NCBI RefSeq assembly: GCF_001598795.1
Contig: NZ_BCZP01000005.1
Location: 240,001 to 272,000, forward strand
Source of the DNA: Delftia acidovorans NBRC 14950
GTDB taxonomy: Bacteria > Pseudomonadota > Gammaproteobacteria > Burkholderiales > Burkholderiaceae_C
Reading direction: 5' to 3'
DNA: 32,000 nt
The translations under genes were made by a program, and so were the position numbers. Below, piece after piece: positions 6,310 through 30,281 of this stretch; position 1 is the first letter of the stretch, and every line of letters starts with the position of its first letter. Below the pieces are notes generated by a model. It worked only from the letters and a program-made list of their open reading frames with translations, made no database searches and was not told the origin of the DNA.

Positions 6310-7281
6310 ATGACCCGCCACCTGCCCCCGCTGGCCGCCCTGCGCGCCTTTGAAGCTGCCGCACGCCTGGGCCGCATGACGGCGGCGGCAGACGAGCTGT
6401 GCGTCTCGCCCGGCGCCGTCAGCCGCCAGGTACGGCAGCTGGAGCAGCACCTGGGCCTGGCGCTGTTCGCGGGCACCAAGGCCCGCCCCACGCTCACCGC
6501 AGCGGCGCGCACCCTGCAGCCCGCGCTCACCCAGGCCTTCCAGCAGATCCAGGAGGCGGTGCGCAGCCTGGGCGACGCCCACGAAGGCCCGCTGGACGTG
6601 GCCTGCTTCAGCACCTTCACCGTCAAATGGCTGATCCCCCGGCTGTTCGACTTCCACGCGCACCATCCCGGCATCGAGGTGCGCCTGCGCACCACGGACA
6701 CCGGCACCGACGCTGCACGCGAAGGCTGCGACCTGCTCATCACGGCCATCCCCACCGACAGCAGCGGCAACAGCGGCCAGGCCATTGCAGACGACGAGTT
6801 GGCCCTGCCGCTTTTCGACGAATACCTGGGCCCCGTGATGTCCCCCGCAATGGCCGGGCCTGTCGCGCGGCCCCAGGACCTGGCCAGCCTCCCCTTGCTG
6901 CACACGCGCGGCCGGCGCGATGCCTGGGACCTGTGGGCCGCCTCCATGGACATGGCCCCGCCCGCAGCAGCCGGCCCCGTCTACGAGCACTACTACTTCA
7001 CGCTGGAAGCGGCGCTGCGCGGCCTGGGTGCAGCCGTCGCCCCCTGGCACCTGGTGATGGACGACGTGCAGGCCGGCCGCCTGCTGGCGCCCTTCGGCTT
7101 CAGGGCCTCCGGCTACCGCTACCTAGCACTGCGCCGCAGCACCGCCGCGCCTGCCCGGCTCGACACCCTGTGCACGTGGCTGCAGGCGCAGGTGCGGGCC
7201 ATGCCGCAAGTGCCAGCCGTCCAAGGCATGCCGATCACGCAGGCAGGCAACTTCGCCGCCACCCCCAAAAATCGATGCTAG
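6310..7281 (+). CDS. LysR-family transcriptional regulator (GcvA-like)
   Basis: The N-terminus MTRHLPPLAALRAFEAAARLGRMTAAADELCVSPGAVSRQV mirrors the GcvA-type wHTH (M-x-x-x-LPPLxALRxFxAAAR). Alternative in-frame starts are GTG 6286 and ATG 6298, inside a triple 12-nt repeat. The TAG stop is at 7279-7281. Confidence 0.85.
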   Translation: MTRHLPPLAALRAFEAAARLGRMTAAADELCVSPGAVSRQVRQLEQHLGLALFAGTKARPTLTAAARTLQPALTQAFQQIQEAVRSLGDAHEGPLDVACFSTFTVKWLIPRLFDFHAHHPGIEVRLRTTDTGTDAAREGCDLLITAIPTDSSGNSGQAIADDELALPLFDEYLGPVMSPAMAGPVARPQDLASLPLLHTRGRRDAWDLWAASMDMAPPAAAGPVYEHYYFTLEAALRGLGAAVAPWHLVMDDVQAGRLLAPFGFRASGYRYLALRRSTAAPARLDTLCTWLQAQVRAMPQVPAVQGMPITQAGNFAATPKNRC

Positions 7282-7284
7282 AAT
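7276..7284 (+). promoter_or_regulatory. Extended -10 element (TGcTAGAAT) of tRNA-Ser copy 1
   Basis: TGCTAGAAT ends 10 nt before the mature tRNA 5' end. The same geometry and near-identical sequence occur at copy 2. I see no good -35 element. Confidence 0.4.
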
Positions 7285-7294
7285 CGCGGTCTTC

Positions 7295-7385
<91 letters not shown>

Positions 7386-23664: not shown

Positions 23665-25536
23665 TTATGCCCCGCCCTGCAGCCGTGCCGCGCGCTGGGC
23701 CAGCCGCTGCTGCTCCGAGGCGCGCAGGGCAGCGATCTGCGCCAGGATCTGCTGCTGCTTTTCCATCAGGCGCTGCGTGTGCACGCCATGCGCATCCCCC
23801 GCCAGGCCCTGGGCAATGCAGGCCAGCGCGCGCGCCGGGTCGCCGCGCTGTTGCCAGGTGTAGGCCAGGTTGAGCTGGGTGCGCGCATCGCGCGGGTCTA
23901 TGCCTTCGGCCTGCAGGTAGGCCTCATGCGCGGCCGCGAACTGCTCCTGGCAGAACAGGCAGTCGCCCAGCACATTCCACAACCAGGTACTGAGCCAGGG
24001 ATTGAGGTCCAGCGCGCTGCGCGCCAGCTCGATGCCGGCGGCAAAGTCCCGCAGCTGCAGGCCCACGAATTCGGCCACCTCGCCCAGCAGCCGCCAGTCG
24101 CGCGGGCTGCGGGTGATGGCCTGGCGGTAGCTTTCCAAAGCGGCGTCCTGGCGGCCCGACTCCAGGTGCGTGCGAGCCTCATGGGCCGGGGCCTCGAAGA
24201 ACTGCTGCGCGTCGGCGCTGAAGCGGTTGAGAAAGGCGGCCGCCGTGCGCTCGCATCCCTCGCCGATCAGCAGCCGCGCATGGATGGCCCTTTGCGCATC
24301 GCCCGAAGGCGCCAGCACCTGCCAGCCCTCGCGCCCGAACAATTGCGCCAGCAGCGGAAAGTTCAGGCCGATGGCGCTGGTGCGGCCAAAGCGCTGGGAG
24401 GCGCCCGCTTGGGCCGCCGCCTCGGGCGTGCAGGCGCCGTAGTCGTTGATGAGCACCAGCCCCTTGGGCGCCAGCCGCTTGTGCAGCGTCTGCAGCGCGC
24501 CAAAGGCGCCGTGGTTGACCAGCAGGCGTGGTGCCGCCTCGCTGACGGACAAGGCGGCATCCACCCAGGGCGACAGCGCTGTCTGGTCGCAGTCGAAGAA
24601 GCCCACCTCCTGCTCGAACAGGCCCACCAGGGGCAGCAGGCGCGCACGCTGGGCCGCATCCGCATGGTCCACCAGGGCACGGATCTCGCCCGGCGACAGC
24701 GCGGTGTACTGGCGCACGAGCTGGGCGTCATCGGTGAGGCGGGTGCGTATGCGCAATTCCTGCACCGGCCCATCGCCCTGCCGCCGCACGACGGTGGCAG
24801 GCAGTACGTCCAGCACGTAGTTGCAGAACACGGCGTGCAGCAGCGGCAGGGGCACCGTGCTGCCGTCCGGCAGCTGCATGGCCTCGGGCCGCATGGCGTC
24901 GCAGCAGCCGGCCACGACCTGGCCGCCGAACTCGGCAAACAGGGCGCGCTCCTGCCATTGCGCGACCGTGCGGGGAGAGCCGTCGGTGACGTAGTAGACC
25001 AGCCGCTGGTCGAAATCACGCCCTTCCTGCTGGCACAGGTGCCGGAAGGCCTGCAGGAACATGCGCGCAAACAGGCCGCAGCCGGCACCCAATTCCAGCA
25101 CGGCAATGGCGCCTTGCGGCGCGGTGTCCGCGCAGTGGTGGAACAGCAGGGCCGCCGCATCCTCCGAGAGGCGGCCGCTGTTGTTGACCACGTAGGGCAC
25201 TTCGTTCTCGGCAAAGGTCAGCAGGCCGGCCTGCGCCCAGTGCAGGTGACCCAGCTCCCACTCGATGCTTTCGGTGATGGGGCGAAAGTCCTGCAGCAGC
25301 TGCGAGGCAACGCGCACGCCCGAAAGAACGTCCTGCGGGGCGCGGATGGCAGGCGGCCCGCACGGCGCTGCGTCAGCGTCCATGGCGGGAAGGGACGCCG
25401 AAAGGGACGCGGACAGGGACACAGGCAGGGGCAGCGAAAGGGACAGTGGCGCGCGCAGGGCGGCCTCGCCCGTCGAAGGGTCGATTCTCAAGATGCTCTC
25501 TCCGGAAGATGCGATGGGAGTGACGCCTGCCTGCAC
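23665..25536 (-). CDS. SAM-dependent methyltransferase (Methyltransf_28 / MidA-NDUFAF7-like) fused to C-terminal TPR-like repeats; gene C of the unassigned module
   Basis: Motif I is VLELGAGCGLFARMF. The blocks YYVTDGSPRTVAQWQ and AVFCNYVLDVLPATVV...ELRI resemble the lvE.Sp.l...Q and aNEffDAlPv...w.E..V blocks of the DUF185/MidA family. The C-terminal ~170 aa have TPR-like A/L/Y/W periodicity (ALESYRQAI..., AHEAYLQAEGIDPRDARTQLNLAYTWQQRGDPARAL). The start is uncertain: GTG 25536 or ATG 25383. Confidence 0.7.
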   Translation of the reverse strand: MQAGVTPIASSGESILRIDPSTGEAALRAPLSLSLPLPVSLSASLSASLPAMDADAAPCGPPAIRAPQDVLSGVRVASQLLQDFRPITESIEWELGHLHWAQAGLLTFAENEVPYVVNNSGRLSEDAAALLFHHCADTAPQGAIAVLELGAGCGLFARMFLQAFRHLCQQEGRDFDQRLVYYVTDGSPRTVAQWQERALFAEFGGQVVAGCCDAMRPEAMQLPDGSTVPLPLLHAVFCNYVLDVLPATVVRRQGDGPVQELRIRTRLTDDAQLVRQYTALSPGEIRALVDHADAAQRARLLPLVGLFEQEVGFFDCDQTALSPWVDAALSVSEAAPRLLVNHGAFGALQTLHKRLAPKGLVLINDYGACTPEAAAQAGASQRFGRTSAIGLNFPLLAQLFGREGWQVLAPSGDAQRAIHARLLIGEGCERTAAAFLNRFSADAQQFFEAPAHEARTHLESGRQDAALESYRQAITRSPRDWRLLGEVAEFVGLQLRDFAAGIELARSALDLNPWLSTWLWNVLGDCLFCQEQFAAAHEAYLQAEGIDPRDARTQLNLAYTWQQRGDPARALACIAQGLAGDAHGVHTQRLMEKQQQILAQIAALRASEQQRLAQRAARLQGGA

Positions 25537-25555
25537 GGCAGGCGTCCGGCCAGGC

Positions 25556-26656
25556 TCAGGGCACGGGCGCCCACTTGGACCAGTTCAGGTCGGCCTGCTC
25601 GAAATCGGCCTTGAGCATGCGGCGCATGGCGTCCACCTCGTTCTGGGTGATCTGCGCTTCCTTGACCTGCTTGCCGGTGGCCGCCGTGCGGGCCTTGGCA
25701 AGATCGGCCTTGGTCACGGAGGCTGTTCCAGCCCAGATGGACTTGGCGGACCCCACATTCACCCAATGCTTGCCCTGGGACTGCAGGTCGGCCTGGTAGG
25801 CGGATTTCCAGCCCATGTTGTTCTGCGACACGGCGTTGAGCAGCTTGGCCAGCGAGCGCTGGTTGCTCACCCCCTGCTGGGCGAATGCCTGCAGGTGAAC
25901 GCGCTCGAACTTCAGCGGCAGCAGGCCCTGCTTGGCCGCCAGGCTGTCGCGCTCATTCCACCAGCGCGATGCATCGGCGGACTTGACGGCCTCCAGCTGG
26001 TTGAGCCAGTCGGCATCGGTGACGATGCTGCCGTCGCCCTTGACCCACTGGAAGCGCTTGAAGCCGATGTCGGCCGCGCGGCCGAAGTTGTGGTTGCTCT
26101 CGCCCGGGCCGGCCTTGGTCTGGGTCTCGGCGGCCTGCTGGGCAAAGGTGCGCCGGCGCCCCGTGGGCGTGATCCACAGCGCGATCTTGTGCGTGTCATA
26201 CATCTGCTGCACCAGGCTGGCCAGCTTGGCGCGGAAGGTGGGCTCGTACTCCGCATCGTTGGCAATGGCGGCCTTGCTGGTGGCCACGTCCTGGGCCTTG
26301 GCCTCCAGGTACACCGTCTTGGAGTTCTGCGCGGCGCGCATGCCCTGGTGCGAGGCCGGCAGCATGCCGCTGAGCTTGGCCACCGTGGCCCCTCCGGCTG
26401 CCGCCAGGCCCAGCGCCTCCTTGGCACCCCCGGCCTGCGGCTGGCCCGGCGCGGCCTTGGCGGCGGCCAGCTTGTGGTCGTTCTGGAAACGCTCCAGCGC
26501 GGCGCGCGTCTGCGCGCCGTAGCTGCCGTCGTAGTCCACGCCCAGATACGGCGCGTTCTTGGCGTCCTTGACCACGCGCAGCATGGCCTGCAGCAGGGCC
26601 ACGTCATGCACCTGGTTGCTGCCGCCCTCGCCTACGCTGTCCTTGATGTCAGGCAT
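25556..26656 (-). CDS. Peptidoglycan-binding-domain protein with M15/VanY-type (LAS) zinc peptidase signature, no signal peptide; gene B of the module
   Basis: ATG 26656 is preceded by GAGGGGAG. The PG_binding_1-like segment is VHDVALLQAMLRVV...LGVDYDGSYGAQTRAALERFQ. The catalytic blocks are GRRRTFAQQ...AGPGESNHNFGRAADI (SxHxxGxAxD) and FERVH (ExxH). The N-terminus MPDIKDSVGEGGSNQ is hydrophilic. Confidence 0.7.
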   Translation of the reverse strand: MPDIKDSVGEGGSNQVHDVALLQAMLRVVKDAKNAPYLGVDYDGSYGAQTRAALERFQNDHKLAAAKAAPGQPQAGGAKEALGLAAAGGATVAKLSGMLPASHQGMRAAQNSKTVYLEAKAQDVATSKAAIANDAEYEPTFRAKLASLVQQMYDTHKIALWITPTGRRRTFAQQAAETQTKAGPGESNHNFGRAADIGFKRFQWVKGDGSIVTDADWLNQLEAVKSADASRWWNERDSLAAKQGLLPLKFERVHLQAFAQQGVSNQRSLAKLLNAVSQNNMGWKSAYQADLQSQGKHWVNVGSAKSIWAGTASVTKADLAKARTAATGKQVKEAQITQNEVDAMRRMLKADFEQADLNWSKWAPVP

Positions 26657-26701
26657 GTTTCTCCCCTCTTTGTGGTTGTCGATATGGCCCGCAGCACCGG
26701 C

Positions 26702-27748
26702 TCAGCGGGCGGGCTCGGGTTTGCGGTCGGGTTTGCGGTCGGGTTTGTTGCCGGGCTTCAGGCCGGCATCCGGCAGCAGGTGCACCAATGGCACGGTGCG
26801 CGGCTGCAGGCTGGCCGAACAGGCACGCAGCCGCAGCGATTCGGCATGCGCCTGCGCCATGTCCGCCGCCACCTGCACCAGAGCGTGATGGGGCGCGGCG
26901 CCTGCGGGACGTGTGCGCACGACGGAATAGGCGCCCAGGCATTCAGCCTGCTGCGCGCGCGCGGCACGCGCTGCCGCCACGCTGGCATAGCGCGCCGCCA
27001 CCACGGCCTGCACGGCGGCCGGTGGTGCCGAGGCCTGCTCGGCAAACGCCTGCCGGCCCTTGTTCCAGCGCAGGCTGCGGGTCTCGATCTGGTCGGGCGC
27101 ATCGTCCTGCGGTGATGCATAGCGCACCAGCAGCACCGGAATCCGGCCCGTGGGCGCCAGCACCCAGCTTTGGTAGTTGCCCTGGGGCTCGTCGTACTGC
27201 CAGGCCAGGTGCGGGCCCTGGGCGGTGGCGACATACAGCGCATGGCGGCGCTTGGGATGCTCAAAGCCCCCCATCTGCGTGACCAGCAGCGCACGCGAGC
27301 CGCCCTGCACACCGGGCAGGCGCAAGCTGCGCACGGCAGCGGTGACGGTGTCTTCCTCCTCGCCAGTCGTCCACACGCGCTCGAGGTGCTGGAGCCCTGC
27401 TGCCGCAGACAGCGGATCGCCCACGCCGTACAGCGGATCGGGCTGCGCCAATTGCGCCGGCCCCCTGGACGCAGGCCAGGACAGCGCCGCTGGCTGGCCC
27501 TGCTGCACACCGGCACGCACCAGCCGCAACTCAAAGGGACAAGGCGCCGCCGTGCAGGCAGGCAGCGACAACTCATAGGCAGGCGCCCCCTTGGCCGTGC
27601 CGGACGGCAGGCTTTCCAGCACCTGCCGCTGCGGCCCGGCAGCGAGCGCCGCCCCGGCACCCAGCACCGCCGCAAGGCTCAAGGCCAGTGCCCGCCATGG
27701 CAGCGCCCCGCCACAGTAAAAATCGGAGCGCATTGAATGGTGAGCCAT
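26702..27748 (-). CDS. Secreted hypothetical protein with C-terminal KPDR repeats; gene A of the module
   Basis: 348-aa ORF with codon usage like its neighbours. The signal-peptide-like segment is WRALALSLAAVLGAGAALAAG. I recognise no family motif. Both candidate starts (ATG 27748 and ATG 27733) lack a good SD. Confidence 0.55.
   Translation of the reverse strand: MAHHSMRSDFYCGGALPWRALALSLAAVLGAGAALAAGPQRQVLESLPSGTAKGAPAYELSLPACTAAPCPFELRLVRAGVQQGQPAALSWPASRGPAQLAQPDPLYGVGDPLSAAAGLQHLERVWTTGEEEDTVTAAVRSLRLPGVQGGSRALLVTQMGGFEHPKRRHALYVATAQGPHLAWQYDEPQGNYQSWVLAPTGRIPVLLVRYASPQDDAPDQIETRSLRWNKGRQAFAEQASAPPAAVQAVVAARYASVAAARAARAQQAECLGAYSVVRTRPAGAAPHHALVQVAADMAQAHAESLRLRACSASLQPRTVPLVHLLPDAGLKPGNKPDRKPDRKPEPAR
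26715..26750. repeat. Three tandem 12-nt units (tcgggtttgcgg x2 plus one variant) encoding the KPDR-KPDR-KPGN tail of gene A
   Basis: Direct reading: 26715-26726 and 26727-26738 are identical. 26739-26750 differs from them at 2 positions. Confidence 0.85.
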
Positions 27749-27893
27749 GGTGATAGCGGGTTTCTATGATTGGCCTGGGCTGTCGATACGCCGCAATACA
27801 GGAGGAATCTGCCGCAATGGGCTTGAAACAGGCATTTCAAGGCCCGGCGCCGCAGGCATTGTCTACAAGCTGGCATGCGGCGTCTGTTGCAAA

Positions 27894-27948
27894 ATGCATC
27901 CGGCGCTTGAGAATTGCATTCAACATTTGCAATTCATCCAGGATGCAT
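27894..27948. repeat. Nested inverted repeats in the A+T-rich intergenic region (candidate operator or RNA structure)
   Basis: The outer arms are ATGCATCC (27894-27901) and GGATGCAT (27941-27948). The inner arms are GAATTGCA (27911-27918) and TGCAATTC (27928-27935). TGCA-core motifs recur in the flanks. Confidence 0.6.
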
Positions 27949-28330
27949 TCTGGAACCGTTCAAACCAGATAAATTTCATTTGCACAAAAATCAACAATAT
28001 CAATGACTTACATGAAATTCACCCCAATTTCACAAAGCAAGGAAAATACCTTCTTGTATACATGACAACTCCCGACATCTGCCTCCATCGAATGCAAGGG
28101 CTGAGGAAAGCCTGAATCAATGCGGATACGCCATGACTTGCCCACTGCAAATAGTGCGCACCGAGGATTCCCTTGATGGACCCGCATCACAAGTTCGCCG
28201 GATTTCACGATACTGCAACCATTCACCATCCCAAATGGCTTGCGGCTGAACGACCGGGGCTGCCTTGCCGGTTGTACCTGCAAGGTGCAGCGGGGCGCAC
28301 CTGCATCGCTGCCGGTTCCAGCTTCTTACC

Positions 28331-28357
28331 TTGACCACCCGAAATCACTGCTACAAT
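28331..28357 (+). promoter_or_regulatory. Sigma-70 promoter of tRNA-Ser copy 2 (TTGACC -35, extended -10 TGcTACAAT)
   Basis: TTGACC lies at 28331-28336, followed by a 15-nt spacer and TACAAT at 28352-28357, which is preceded by TGc. The -10 element ends 10 nt before the tRNA 5' end, as at copy 1. Confidence 0.5.
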
Positions 28358-28367
28358 CGCTGGCTTC

Positions 28368-28457
<90 letters not shown>

Positions 28458-28467
28458 TACACCCAGC

Positions 28468-28500
28468 AAAACGGGCCCCTACACGGGGCCCGTTTTCGTT
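28468..28500 (+). terminator. Rho-independent terminator after tRNA-Ser copy 2
   Basis: The stem ACGGGCCCC (28471-28479) pairs with GGGGCCCGT (28485-28493) across a 5-nt loop, followed by TTTCGTTT. Confidence 0.8.
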
Positions 28501-28832
28501 TCCGGGCCGGCTTGTGGCAAGGTTCATGCCCAGGTTTGCGCCCGCCGTGCCCGCCCCTGCCCCGGCCCCGCGCACCGGCCGCACATCAGGGAAAGCGACA
28601 GCACGGACACCCCCTCCAAGCCTTGCGCAGACGCGCCCCAGGGCTTGCAATAGGCAGCAGCTGGCAGCAATAGGCAAGCGTCTGACAAGCACATCCTTGT
28701 TTCGGTGATGTACTAGCTGCAACAAAGCCCCCAGGCGCGCAGCTTTATGCAACAGCACCCCTGGCGCGAACGTGCATCCAGCCCCATGGCGCGCATGGCT
28801 TGCGGCGCTTGAGATTCGACGGAGGTTCCCCA

Positions 28833-28997
28833 ATGGAAAGCAAGGTCATCAAGCTCCCTCAAGTCCTCTTAACTTCCGTCAATTTCCCTCAATTGACGAT
28901 AGTTTTCAATCGAATCGGAGCAATCGATCGAAAATTCCAAAAACCCGCCGTATATTCCACACCGCTTTGCAGCCTGCCCGGCCCGTCTTCGGGCTGA
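28833..28997 (+). CDS. Possible 54-aa upstream ORF/leader peptide in the low-GC leader of wecB (hypothetical)
   Basis: ATG 28833 lies 7 nt after a perfect GGAGG. It encodes MESKVIKLPQVLLTSVNFPQLTIVFNRIGAIDRKFQKPAVYSTPLCSLPGPSSG. Its codon usage (TTA, ATA, CGA, AAT) is unlike the host genes. The stop lies inside a 7-bp hairpin. I recognise no family. Confidence 0.25.
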   Translation: MESKVIKLPQVLLTSVNFPQLTIVFNRIGAIDRKFQKPAVYSTPLCSLPGPSSG

Positions 28998-29078
28998 GAC
29001 GGGTCCTGCCCCTGCCGGGTACAGCGCAGCACAAGAACGCACAAGCGAAGAGCACAGGAAAACGCAAAAGGGGTTGGC

Positions 29079-30281
29079 ATGAAGATTCTTTCGTTTTTCG
29101 GGACCCGTCCCGAGGCCATCAAGATGGCGCCACTGGTCACGGCCCTGTCGCAGACGCGGGGCATCGAGAGCGTGGTGTGCGTCACCGGCCAGCACCGGCA
29201 GATGCTGGACCAGGTGATGGATCTGTTCGGCCTGCAGGCGCAGCACGATCTCGCCGTCATGCAACCCAACCAGACGCTCAACGGCCTGTTCTCCCGCGTG
29301 GTGGCAGGTGCCGATGGCGTGCTCGAGCAGGAAAAGCCCGACTACGTACTGGTGCACGGCGACACCAGCACGGCCACGGCCTGCGCGCTGGCGGCGTTTC
29401 ACCGCCGCATTCCGGTGGGCCACGTGGAAGCCGGCCTGCGCACCGGCGATCTGGCCCAGCCCTTTCCCGAAGAGATGAACCGCCGCGTGGTCGATGTGGT
29501 CAGCCAGTGGATGTTTGCGCCCACGCCCACGTCGCGCGCCAACCTGCTGGGCGAGAACCTGCAGGGCCGCATCGCCGTGACGGGCAACACCGTCATCGAT
29601 GCGCTGGCCACGCTGTGCGACCGGCTCGATGCCCAGCCCGAGCTGGCCCGTGCCATTGCCCAGCGCCATCCCTGGGTGGATGCGCAGCGCCCGCTGCTGC
29701 TGGTCACGGGACACCGGCGCGAGAATTTCGGCGAAGGCTTCCAGAACATCTGCGCTGCGCTGGCCGAGCTGGCGCAGCGCCATCCGGACCTGCTCATCGT
29801 CTACCCCGTGCACTTCAACCCCGCCGTGCGCGAAGTGGTCATGCGCACGCTGGGCGGCATGGACAACATCCGCCTCATCGATCCGCTGGACTATGTGGAC
29901 TTCGTCTGGTTCATGCAGCGCGCCCACATCATCCTGACCGACTCCGGCGGCGTGCAGGAAGAGGCGCCCTACCTGGGCAAGCCCGTGCTGGTGATGCGCG
30001 AGGTGACCGAGCGGCCCGAGGCCGTATCGGCCGGCACCGTGCTGCTGGTGGGCACGCAGCGCGCGCGCATCGTGGCCGAGGTCAACCGGCTGCTGGCCGA
30101 CGAGGGGCACCACGCCTCGTTTGCGCGCCGCATCAATCCCTATGGCGATGGCCAGGCCTCGCAGCGCATCGTGCGCGCCCTGCTGGGACAGCCCTTCGAC
30201 GAGTTTGCCGCCGGACACACAGGCGGCGCGGCCGTCCCGGGCATCACGGCCGCCGTGACCAAGGGCATGGCGCCGGCCTGA
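29079..30281 (+). CDS. wecB: UDP-N-acetylglucosamine 2-epimerase (non-hydrolysing)
   Basis: MKILSFFGTRPEAIKMAPLV...VCVTGQHRQMLDQV...DYVLVHGDTSTA...HVEAGLRT...PFPEEMNRR...ILTDSGGVQEEAP.LGKPVLVMR..TERPE are all canonical WecB/MnaA blocks. Confidence 0.9.
   Translation: MKILSFFGTRPEAIKMAPLVTALSQTRGIESVVCVTGQHRQMLDQVMDLFGLQAQHDLAVMQPNQTLNGLFSRVVAGADGVLEQEKPDYVLVHGDTSTATACALAAFHRRIPVGHVEAGLRTGDLAQPFPEEMNRRVVDVVSQWMFAPTPTSRANLLGENLQGRIAVTGNTVIDALATLCDRLDAQPELARAIAQRHPWVDAQRPLLLVTGHRRENFGEGFQNICAALAELAQRHPDLLIVYPVHFNPAVREVVMRTLGGMDNIRLIDPLDYVDFVWFMQRAHIILTDSGGVQEEAPYLGKPVLVMREVTERPEAVSAGTVLLVGTQRARIVAEVNRLLADEGHHASFARRINPYGDGQASQRIVRALLGQPFDEFAAGHTGGAAVPGITAAVTKGMAPA

Follow-up and report, generated by a model that had tools for sequence, protein, structure and literature searches.

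Three adjacent minus-strand genes of Delftia acidovorans NBRC 14950, here called A, B and C, are the subject of this analysis. They lie in a stretch of 32,000 nucleotides (contig NZ_BCZP01000005.1, positions 240,001 to 272,000), referred to below as the window, and their features are collected in Table 1. A preliminary description, made from the letters alone, had listed the three open reading frames (ORFs) and several motifs. The ORFs were present exactly where it had placed them, and the motifs that it quoted (VHDVALLQAMLRVV, GRRRTFAQQ, AGPGESNHNFGRAADI, FERVH, VLELGAGCGLF, FCNYVLDVLP and the KPDR tail) were all found in the translations. In public annotation, B is named "peptidoglycan-binding protein" or "M15 family metallopeptidase", A "hypothetical" or "secreted protein", and C "SAM-dependent methyltransferase". 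The combination of B, a secreted partner and C is undescribed in the full-text literature and the libraries searched, including PADLOC, as the preliminary description had supposed, and it is more general than the trio of the window.

Table 1. Genes and features of the A-B-C region, in window coordinates
Feature	Position	Strand	Description
Gene A	26702..27748	-	348-aa ORF, signal-peptide protein without known family
Signal-peptide region of A	27638..27748	-	aa 1-37, MAHHSMRSDFYCGGALPWRALALSLAAVLGAGAALAA/GPQ; read from the translation
C-terminal tail of A	26705..26764	-	KPDR-repeat, low complexity; Delftia-specific
Gene B	25556..26656	-	366 aa, leaderless; PG_binding_1 + putative LAS (VanY/Ply500-like) zinc peptidase + helical C-terminal domain
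PG_binding_1-like domain of B	26462..26644	-	aa ~5-65, three-helix domain
LAS catalytic core of B	25877..26299	-	aa ~120-260; GRRRTFAQQ, GPGESNHNFGRAADI, FERVHLQ
C-terminal domain of B	25559..25873	-	aa ~262-366, no relative found
Gene C	23665..25536	-	623 aa, Methyltransf_28-like class I S-adenosylmethionine (SAM) methyltransferase fused to tetratricopeptide repeats (TPR), cytoplasmic
Methyltransferase region of C	24217..25341	-	aa ~66-440; LELGAGCGLF, YYVTDGS, NYVLDVLP, INDYG, QRFG
TPR region of C	23782..24189	-	aa ~450-585
A+T-richer non-coding stretch	27749..28367	.	G+C ~57% vs ~70%; presumed promoter/leader region of the module

The peptidase B and its secreted partner A

The preliminary description had read B as a PG_binding_1 domain joined to a peptidase of the LAS (M15) type, and invariant residues and fold bear this out. 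The window protein scored 22.8 bits for PG_binding_1 (PF01471) in Pfam against a gathering cutoff of 23. The same family is precomputed on many B homologues, the three-helix segment was modelled at a predicted local distance difference test value (pLDDT) of 95-98, and an endolysin family of PHROG was matched on this part of the protein. For VanY (PF02557) and Peptidase_M15_4 (PF13539), the scores were 16.7 and 15.0 bits, both under the cutoff of 25, and PF02557 is carried by one homologue (P0093). By score, therefore, B is a divergent branch outside both Pfam families. Residues R169, Q174, S187, H189, D196 and H254 were invariant among 29 close homologues and 65 loci, and position 251 was E or D in all of these (E/D-x-x-H). 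By alignment, H189, D196 and H254 are the predicted zinc ligands and E251 is the acid.

A profile of the B family matched LysB4 and Ply500 in the PDB (E 2e-3 to 3e-3). The AlphaFold2 (AF2) model of B (pLDDT 93.7, predicted template modelling score 0.87) was compared with the PDB by Foldseek, and the best matches were Ply500 (E 3.7e-5) and LysB4 (E 1.1e-4), both with a probability of 1.00, followed by VanX and LdcB with probabilities of at least 0.97 (VanX: E 3.6e-2, TMt 0.37). Sequence identity to these structures was only 16-18% over ~158 columns. The fold matches in BFVD were M15 endolysins and covered only the core of 130-170 residues. The LAS/M15 assignment thus holds despite the weak Pfam scores because of active-site invariance, fold and family profile, and the model makes B a credible active peptidoglycan (PG) peptidase of the LAS type with an intact active site. 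The cleaved bond cannot be told from the fold matches, since L-Ala-D-Glu endopeptidases, D,D- and L,D-carboxypeptidases and a dipeptidase are all among them. The C-terminal domain consists of helices modelled at pLDDT >90, with conserved W283, Y287, G302, W308 and W362; no relative of these ~105 residues was found in the PDB or BFVD, where the matches stop at the catalytic core. The window protein is 94-98% identical to proteins of D. tsuruhatensis and D. acidovorans.

That B has no signal peptide had also been claimed beforehand, and the claim extends to its relatives. The N-terminal sequence MPDIKDSVGEGG is kept in 29/29 aligned homologues. With the PG-binding domain starting near residue 5, practically at residue 1, there is no room left for a signal peptide. 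An exhaustive hidden Markov model (HMM) search with the B profile over 1.84 billion representative sequences yielded 1525 relatives, of which 404 reached E<1e-10 and 152 reached E<1e-30, and the family comprises ~150 clusters at 50% identity. Position 1 of the profile matches residue 1 in nearly all full-length members; judged from these alignments, leaderlessness is a trait of the whole B family.

Some relatives differ in their N-terminal parts. P0419 has 1442 aa (L077:402-4730) and carries the catalytic region and the C-terminal domain of B at its C-terminus. P0416 (766 aa, L078:779-3079) has three PG_binding_1 repeats followed by the B-type catalytic region and C-terminal domain, and its gene is followed by one for a 159-aa lipobox protein, a third kind of secreted partner. 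No match in Pfam, NCBIfam, PHROG or the PDB was found for the long N-terminal regions of P0419 and P0416. These fusions gave no clue to delivery, their N-termini being unmatched and their contigs too short for a delivery system to be seen on them. P0398 and P0405 begin differently, with a short N-terminal part that carries the motif FEF..K.FR.TS.TLQ.C. The C-terminal domain of B accompanies the catalytic core in all four proteins.

Gene A codes for a protein that was expected to be secreted and to belong to no recognised family, and both expectations are supported. Its homologues have equivalent hydrophobic N-termini (the acidobacterial L001 protein has the lipobox LSGC), a homologue from Pseudomonas is named "Secreted protein" in UniProt, and A had no match in Pfam, NCBIfam, PHROG or PADLOC. 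The KPDR tail is missing from the aligned homologues, and aa 329-343 were modelled at pLDDT <50. The AF2 model of A (pLDDT 79.5) contains a beta-rich domain at aa ~42-240 and a C-terminal beta-alpha-beta-beta-alpha-beta unit at aa 247-320. Nothing significant was found among PDB folds. The C-terminal unit resembles the SPOR domain of CwlC (probability 0.90, TMt 0.64), a weak likeness, and an ambiguous one, as PII- and BMC-like folds reach similar scores. Invariant in the A family are C65, C70, C270 and C310, the segment TGEEE (128-132), and Q158, G161, H164, R167 and H169 (QxxGFEHxKRRH).

Homologues of A were also found away from B. A 55%-identical homologue, which keeps the signal peptide and the four cysteines, lies without B or C in an Rtc operon of Metapseudomonas otitidis GCA_029835315.1 (L074:8001-8912), and its clusters also include P. 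solani, P. tohonis and P. alcaligenes. The order of this operon is RtcR, Peptidase_C92, Ro60-vWA, RtcB, a 192-aa protein, RlaP, the A homologue, a HEAT-repeat protein of 459 aa, a 287-aa protein and RtcA. In the acidobacterial locus L002 (3285-8451), a gene for RtcB lies ~5 kb and a 79-aa Terminase_2 fragment ~0.5 kb upstream of A-B-C, which is probably a coincidence. An orphan A without B occurs in the soil metagenome contig Ga0065704_10071665 (L095:4767-8045), followed by a small secreted-looking ORF and then, on the opposite strand, by a 404-aa ORF. This last ORF may be a gene for an immunity protein of the SMI1/KNR4 (SUKH) kind, to judge by its segment "...RRFLPFAQSGAGDLYCLV...WHDDD"; it had no sequence match in the PDB.

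Distribution of the cassette, gene C and the local sequence

The B profile picked out 69 loci in a set of species-representative genomes, and the clustering of neighbouring genes took in 73. The hosts include Delftia and other Burkholderiales, Competibacteraceae, many Acidobacteriota, Rokubacteria, Gemmatimonadota and Planctomycetota, as well as Sphingomonas, Novosphingobium, Mesorhizobium and Myxococcales. In 57 of the ~68 loci with sequence upstream of B (~84%), B is preceded at 4-45 nt by a same-strand gene whose product has a signal peptide. This partner is of the A type in 25 loci. In the other 32, which belong to a more distant B clade, it is a protein of ~170 aa with a signal peptide, two conserved cysteines and a C-terminal F-x-C-x-E, here called fam2. 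No match to fam2 was found in Pfam or the PDB, and a truncated A was rejected as its origin (hhalign probability 0.9%). The B sequences cluster strictly by partner type, and C was found only in the A-type subclade. In a metagenome scan made from the A side, B came after A in all but two of the loci long enough to hold it, and C adjoined them in 20/20 complete A-type metagenome loci, in addition to 13 genome loci.

The trio occurs in three arrangements, namely A-B-C in one direction (Delftia), A-B with a convergent C, and C-A-B. The last was seen in L109 (1981-5927), with all genes co-directional. In most relatives C is convergent and is not co-transcribed with A-B. The adjacency of C thus outlasts the shuffling of gene order, which indicates that C is functionally linked to A-B. 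On three acidobacterial/Bryobacterales contigs with wholly different flanks, a 302-313-aa protein without Pfam match is followed by B and a convergent C; this upstream protein is a homologue of A (33% identity, E 1e-24). Beyond the partner and C, no recurrent neighbour of B was found except for lineage-specific synteny (gyrA, kinases). A third conserved gene was rejected for the loci without C, where unrelated genes lie downstream (amylase, arylsulfotransferase, DUF6351, transposase, arginine decarboxylase). The conserved core is therefore a two-gene unit, a secreted partner and then B, with C as an accessory of one subclade. The three-gene module of the preliminary description stands in so far as it is syntenic across phyla, and needs amending in that its core has two genes, the partner may be fam2 and C belongs to one subclade only.

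The flanking genes differ in every lineage, and the B protein of Delftia has 61% identity to that of Solibacteraceae and 59% to those of other Burkholderiales. From these comparisons, the cassette appears to be widespread and horizontally spread. Over the same 13 loci, the mean pairwise identity was 0.35 for A, 0.57 for B and 0.54 for C, so A diverges fastest.

Several loci deviate from the common layout. Two tandem copies of A lie upstream of B, with a convergent C, in the gammaproteobacterial metagenome-assembled genome (MAG) contig JACQBC010000011.1 (L021:7693-9995). In L075 (7988-9726), C and an intact A are kept and B is cut to a remnant of 141 aa, and in L076 (6001-7725) a homologue of C without A or B lies beside a PQQ-repeat protein and an ORF of 1118 aa. 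In two MAGs of Bryobacterales (L020:41-2531 and L022:7210-10993), B has no secreted partner, and its start overlaps the end of a gene of the Phosphoesterase family (PF04185, phospholipase C/acid phosphatase-like), whose product may be a different operon partner of B.

Gene C had been described as a Methyltransf_28-like enzyme fused to TPRs, and both parts score over the Pfam cutoffs. Methyltransf_28 (PF02636) matched aa 139-370 with 30.0 bits against a gathering threshold of 23.3 (E 4.7e-7), a match that covers only model positions 15-193 of 249. The same family is precomputed on most of 120 C homologues. In the alignment of C, G85, G87 and G89 (motif I), D120, N174-Y-x-L-D-x-L-P181, D300-Y-G and Q316-R-F-G are invariant. 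The protein is over the cutoff for TPR_1, TPR_2, TPR_8, TPR_11 and TPR_19, and its TPR region matches consensus-TPR structures (E 1.7e-40). Nothing matched the methyltransferase region among all PDB chains, with phmmer or with the family profile, and a link of this domain to a solved structure was thus dropped for single sequence and profile alike. Taken together, these matches make C a very divergent member of Methyltransf_28. No residue of B was found to track the presence of C; E/D251 is only loosely correlated.

The spacing of 45 nt between A and B agrees with the preliminary description, and B is preceded by a strong Shine-Dalgarno sequence, GAGGGGAG. The spacing of 19 nt between B and C did not stand. 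It rests on a GTG start of C that the homologues give no support, and the first ~60 residues of C are unconserved among them. A TTG at 25491, preceded by GGAGAG, corresponds to the start of the 99%-identical P0121; it is the likely true start of C on this comparison, and the spacing would then be ~64 nt. It is plausible from the sequence that the three genes are on a single transcript, as had been proposed, and no minus-strand terminator was seen between them. In the A+T-richer DNA upstream of A, where this transcript had been thought to start, no sigma-70-like promoter was detected.

The drop in G+C to ~57% (window ~70%) spans 27500-29000, on both sides of a tRNA-Ser gene, and neither a convincing ORF nor, the tRNA apart, an Rfam match was found in the ~620 bp on each side of this gene (to wecB at 29079). 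An Rfam scan of the A+T-rich leader gave the neighbouring tRNA only, with the score for sX4 far under threshold, and a regulatory RNA was rejected accordingly. The tRNA gene, which sits just upstream of A, is the second of two complete and identical tRNA-Ser(GGA) genes 21 kb apart on the plus strand (7261-7384 and 28334-28457), which form a 124-nt repeat of 94% identity including ~34 nt upstream, with unrelated flanks. The pair looks like a paralogous tRNA duplication and not an att-site repeat bounding an island. A genomic island between the two was rejected, because the copies are complete, the flanks unrelated, the G+C ordinary and the genes between them of housekeeping type. The neighbours in the window are genes for a TonB receptor, FecR, an ECF sigma factor, LysR, an MFS transporter and tRNA-Ser, and wecB.

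Possible functions of the cassette

The surroundings of the B loci were searched for phage, secretion and defence genes. A tblastn search with B gave nothing in collections of 50,697 phage and 72,556 plasmid records, and no phage genes were found in the window. Among 2.9 million viral contigs (IMG/VR) there was one match, a fam2-B pair at a contig edge, and the eight ORFs scanned on that contig included no phage hallmark. No conserved holin or spanin candidate was found near the B loci. An ORF of 40-170 aa with at least two hydrophobic segments lies within 1.2 kb of B in 3 of the 73 loci, the window not among them, according to a crude hydropathy scan. None of the three proteins matched PADLOC-DB at E up to 1, and a known defence system was rejected for this reason. 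The neighbourhoods of the cassette hold ribosomal, metabolic, transporter and gyrA genes and are not defence islands.

We tentatively favour, at somewhat less than an even chance, the reading that B is a leaderless PG peptidase, that A is the matching inhibitor or immunity protein which restrains it in the periplasm, and that C is an accessory in the cytoplasm. B would be made in the cytoplasm, while its only sensible substrate, the PG peptide stem, is outside the cytoplasm; it would thus act on a periplasmic cell wall, either that of a neighbour or that of the producer after leakage or release. A, exported by Sec, would bind and neutralise B in the periplasm. C would bind a protein through its TPR array, B prior to its export being the simplest candidate, and the MidA-like methyltransferase domain of C would modify the bound protein, possibly by methylating B or another partner. 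Transport as cargo of a type VI secretion system (T6SS) would be the most plausible delivery route in Delftia; no T6SS gene was seen near the loci.

This effector/immunity reading is favoured because a leaderless wall enzyme is tightly paired with a secreted partner, and because the partners are unrelated and fast-evolving in the different B clades. It is favoured also because of the duplicated and orphan partners, the decay of B beside a kept A, the long fusions and the scattered spread across phyla. Tandem A-A-B, an intact A beside a decayed B and an orphan A are patterns typical, by analogy, of immunity genes. Similarly, the B core stands at the C-terminus of long unrelated N-terminal regions much as in polymorphic toxins. 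Of the three possible functions offered in the preliminary description, the toxin with a periplasmic immunity protein gives the best fit, and there is also real counter-evidence to it.

Several observations weigh against this reading. In ~11 loci, B has intact catalytic residues and no recognisable partner, which is awkward for an obligate toxin/immunity pair. Partner and then enzyme is the less common gene order for effector/immunity pairs, and we know of no precedent among them for a methyltransferase-TPR third gene such as C. A is large and has two domains, and its invariant TGEEE and QxxGFEHxKRRH could mark an enzyme or ligand site and not an inhibitor surface. Its stable place without B in the RNA-repair operon of Pseudomonas and Metapseudomonas hints at a role that is independent of B. 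The genes that recur within 6 kb of B across the 73 clustered loci do not include vgrG, hcp, PAAR or an adaptor gene, nor does the window, and a Pfam scan of B at E up to 1 found no delivery domain (MIX, FIX, PAAR, VgrG, XVIPCD). With no secretion-system gene, delivery-marker domain or holin near ~100 loci, the route of B to any periplasm is unexplained.

Among the alternatives, a regulated autolysin or envelope-remodelling unit deserves the most attention, unlikely as we hold it to be. B would reach the periplasm of its own cell by an unrecognised leaderless route and trim stems there, A would be a periplasmic regulator or co-factor, possibly binding PG through its SPOR-like unit, and C would tune B in the cytoplasm. 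The module is chromosomal and conserved in the genus Delftia (137- and 201-member clusters on many contigs), its G+C is the same as that of the genome, and the possible SPOR-like unit and enzyme-like invariant motifs of A, together with the partner-less B copies with intact sites, agree with such a role. A precedent is ChiX, a chromosomal leaderless LAS endopeptidase that acts on the cell's own wall (PMC5778951). The SPOR match of A is, however, weak and ambiguous, no export device was found, with a small multi-transmembrane ORF near 3 of 73 loci only, and the patchy spread across phyla, the swaps between unrelated partners and the fast evolution of the partner would be unusual for housekeeping remodelling. 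The absence of a leader throughout the B family would also suit an enzyme that stays in the cytoplasm and, as VanX/DdpX or LdcA do, works on soluble peptides containing D-amino acids, either precursors of PG or muropeptides being recycled, with the PG_binding_1-like domain as a ligand-binding or pro-domain and the secreted neighbour loosely related in function. One of the fold matches, VanX, is a LAS dipeptidase of the cytoplasm and shares E-x-x-H with VanY and B, C is cytoplasmic, and some copies of B have no partner. We nevertheless consider it quite unlikely. Foldseek ranks endolysin domains that act on the wall well ahead of VanX, soluble substrates would give a PG-binding module, present three times in P0416, little purpose, and this reading offers no reason why B is so tightly paired, operon-like, with proteins bearing a signal peptide in 84% of the loci.

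Abortive infection or programmed lysis would account for a leaderless enzyme, the lack of a holin and a periplasmic neutraliser all at once: B stored in the cytoplasm would lyse the cell only once something such as a phage holin or a toxin had opened the inner membrane, or once C had sensed a trigger, while periplasmic A mops up leakage of B. TPR-enzyme fusions are a common sensor architecture in defence systems, and there are sporadic defence-like neighbours, an R.HinP1I endonuclease (L040) and a nucleotidyltransferase (L071). Against this stand the lack of a PADLOC-DB match, neighbourhoods that are not defence islands and the lack of C in most of the B family, and the chance of it seems to us small. 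A kind of system that is new altogether, in which a cytoplasmic stock of LAS peptidase is released or licensed without a holin through an undescribed export route or a suicide/defence switch sensed by the methyltransferase-TPR protein, is also rather improbable. In the switch variant, C would sense a signal and methylate B, for example at the invariant GRRR of the active-site loop, thereby arming or disarming it, and the periplasmic partner would set the threshold. Very improbable, and largely refuted here, is a domesticated phage lysis cassette or a holin-dependent "type 10" unit of the ChiWXYZ kind. [quoted passage not shown] The phage and plasmid collections gave no match, however, the one viral-contig match lies at an edge and lacks hallmarks, the viral fold matches cover the core only, and there are neither conserved holins or spanins nor phage genes in the window. 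An ordinary prophage endolysin, which the preliminary description had named as the finding that would undo its view of B, was rejected, given the lack of phage and plasmid homologues, the core-only viral fold matches and the cellular flanks. A holin-dependent ChiX-like system was likewise rejected, as no small membrane protein is conserved.

If the effector/immunity reading is true, the cassette would represent a new and phylogenetically broad family of PG-targeting effector/inhibitor pairs, spanning Acidobacteriota, four proteobacterial classes, Planctomycetota, Gemmatimonadota and Rokubacteria, with at least two or three unrelated cognate inhibitors. It would provide new wall-lytic enzymes and proteinaceous inhibitors of LAS peptidases, and would raise the question of how a folded leaderless hydrolase exits the cell in phyla whose secretion is little studied. 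To our knowledge, the only characterised member of Methyltransf_28 is a mitochondrial complex I assembly factor, and the steady adjacency of C offers a tractable entry to the bacterial function of this family. A methylation switch, if true, would be the first bacterial role for a protein methyltransferase of the MidA/NDUFAF7 type and the first methylation-controlled PG hydrolase. A housekeeping remodelling unit would be of modest interest.

Comparison with known systems

Stand-alone pairs of a PG-hydrolase effector and a periplasmic immunity protein reportedly include the T6SS pairs Tse1-Tsi1 and Tse3-Tsi3 of P. aeruginosa and the X-Tfe/X-Tfi pairs of the type IV secretion system of Xanthomonadales. 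Like these, B is a leaderless wall enzyme whose adjacent gene codes for a partner exported by Sec or as a lipoprotein; the partners are unrelated and fast-diverging in the different B clades, the two genes stand alone as a bicistron whose context varies, partner genes are found duplicated or as orphans, and the enzyme domain of B is also found fused to long N-terminal regions. Unlike them, A-B shows neither linkage to a secretion system nor a known delivery domain, the partner gene comes first, and partner-less loci exist. We know of no described effector/immunity pair that combines a VanY/Ply500-like LAS domain with an N-terminal PG_binding_1 and a novel C-terminal domain.

With the endopeptidases Ply500, LysB4 and CwlK and the carboxypeptidases VanY and LdcB (MEROPS M15), B shares the LAS fold, the signature S-x-H-x-x-G-x-A-x-D plus (E/D)-x-x-H, and the R and Q substrate residues. 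It differs from them in its low identity, the lack of phage context and its flanking domains. ChiX of Serratia marcescens is a leaderless LAS zinc peptidase encoded by the chromosomal, non-prophage chiWXYZ genes and belongs to holin-dependent "type 10" secretion (PMC4259817, PMC5778951). It is an L-Ala-D-Glu endopeptidase acting on the wall of the producer, with Ply500 as its closest solved structure (PMC5778951), and it consists of a single domain of 134 residues and depends on the adjacent holin ChiW (PMC4259817, PMC5778951). B resembles ChiX in being chromosomal, leaderless, of the LAS type and nearest to Ply500 in structure, whereas it has 366 aa with PG-binding and C-terminal domains, no holin nearby, no known secreted cargo and its acid in an E/D-x-x-H motif. 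MidA/NDUFAF7 (Methyltransf_28) is a protein-arginine methyltransferase of complex I assembly (PMC3829151). C shares with it the class I SAM motif I and an NxxxDxxP-like block; unlike MidA/NDUFAF7, C is fused to TPRs and adjoins a gene for a PG peptidase instead of respiratory genes.

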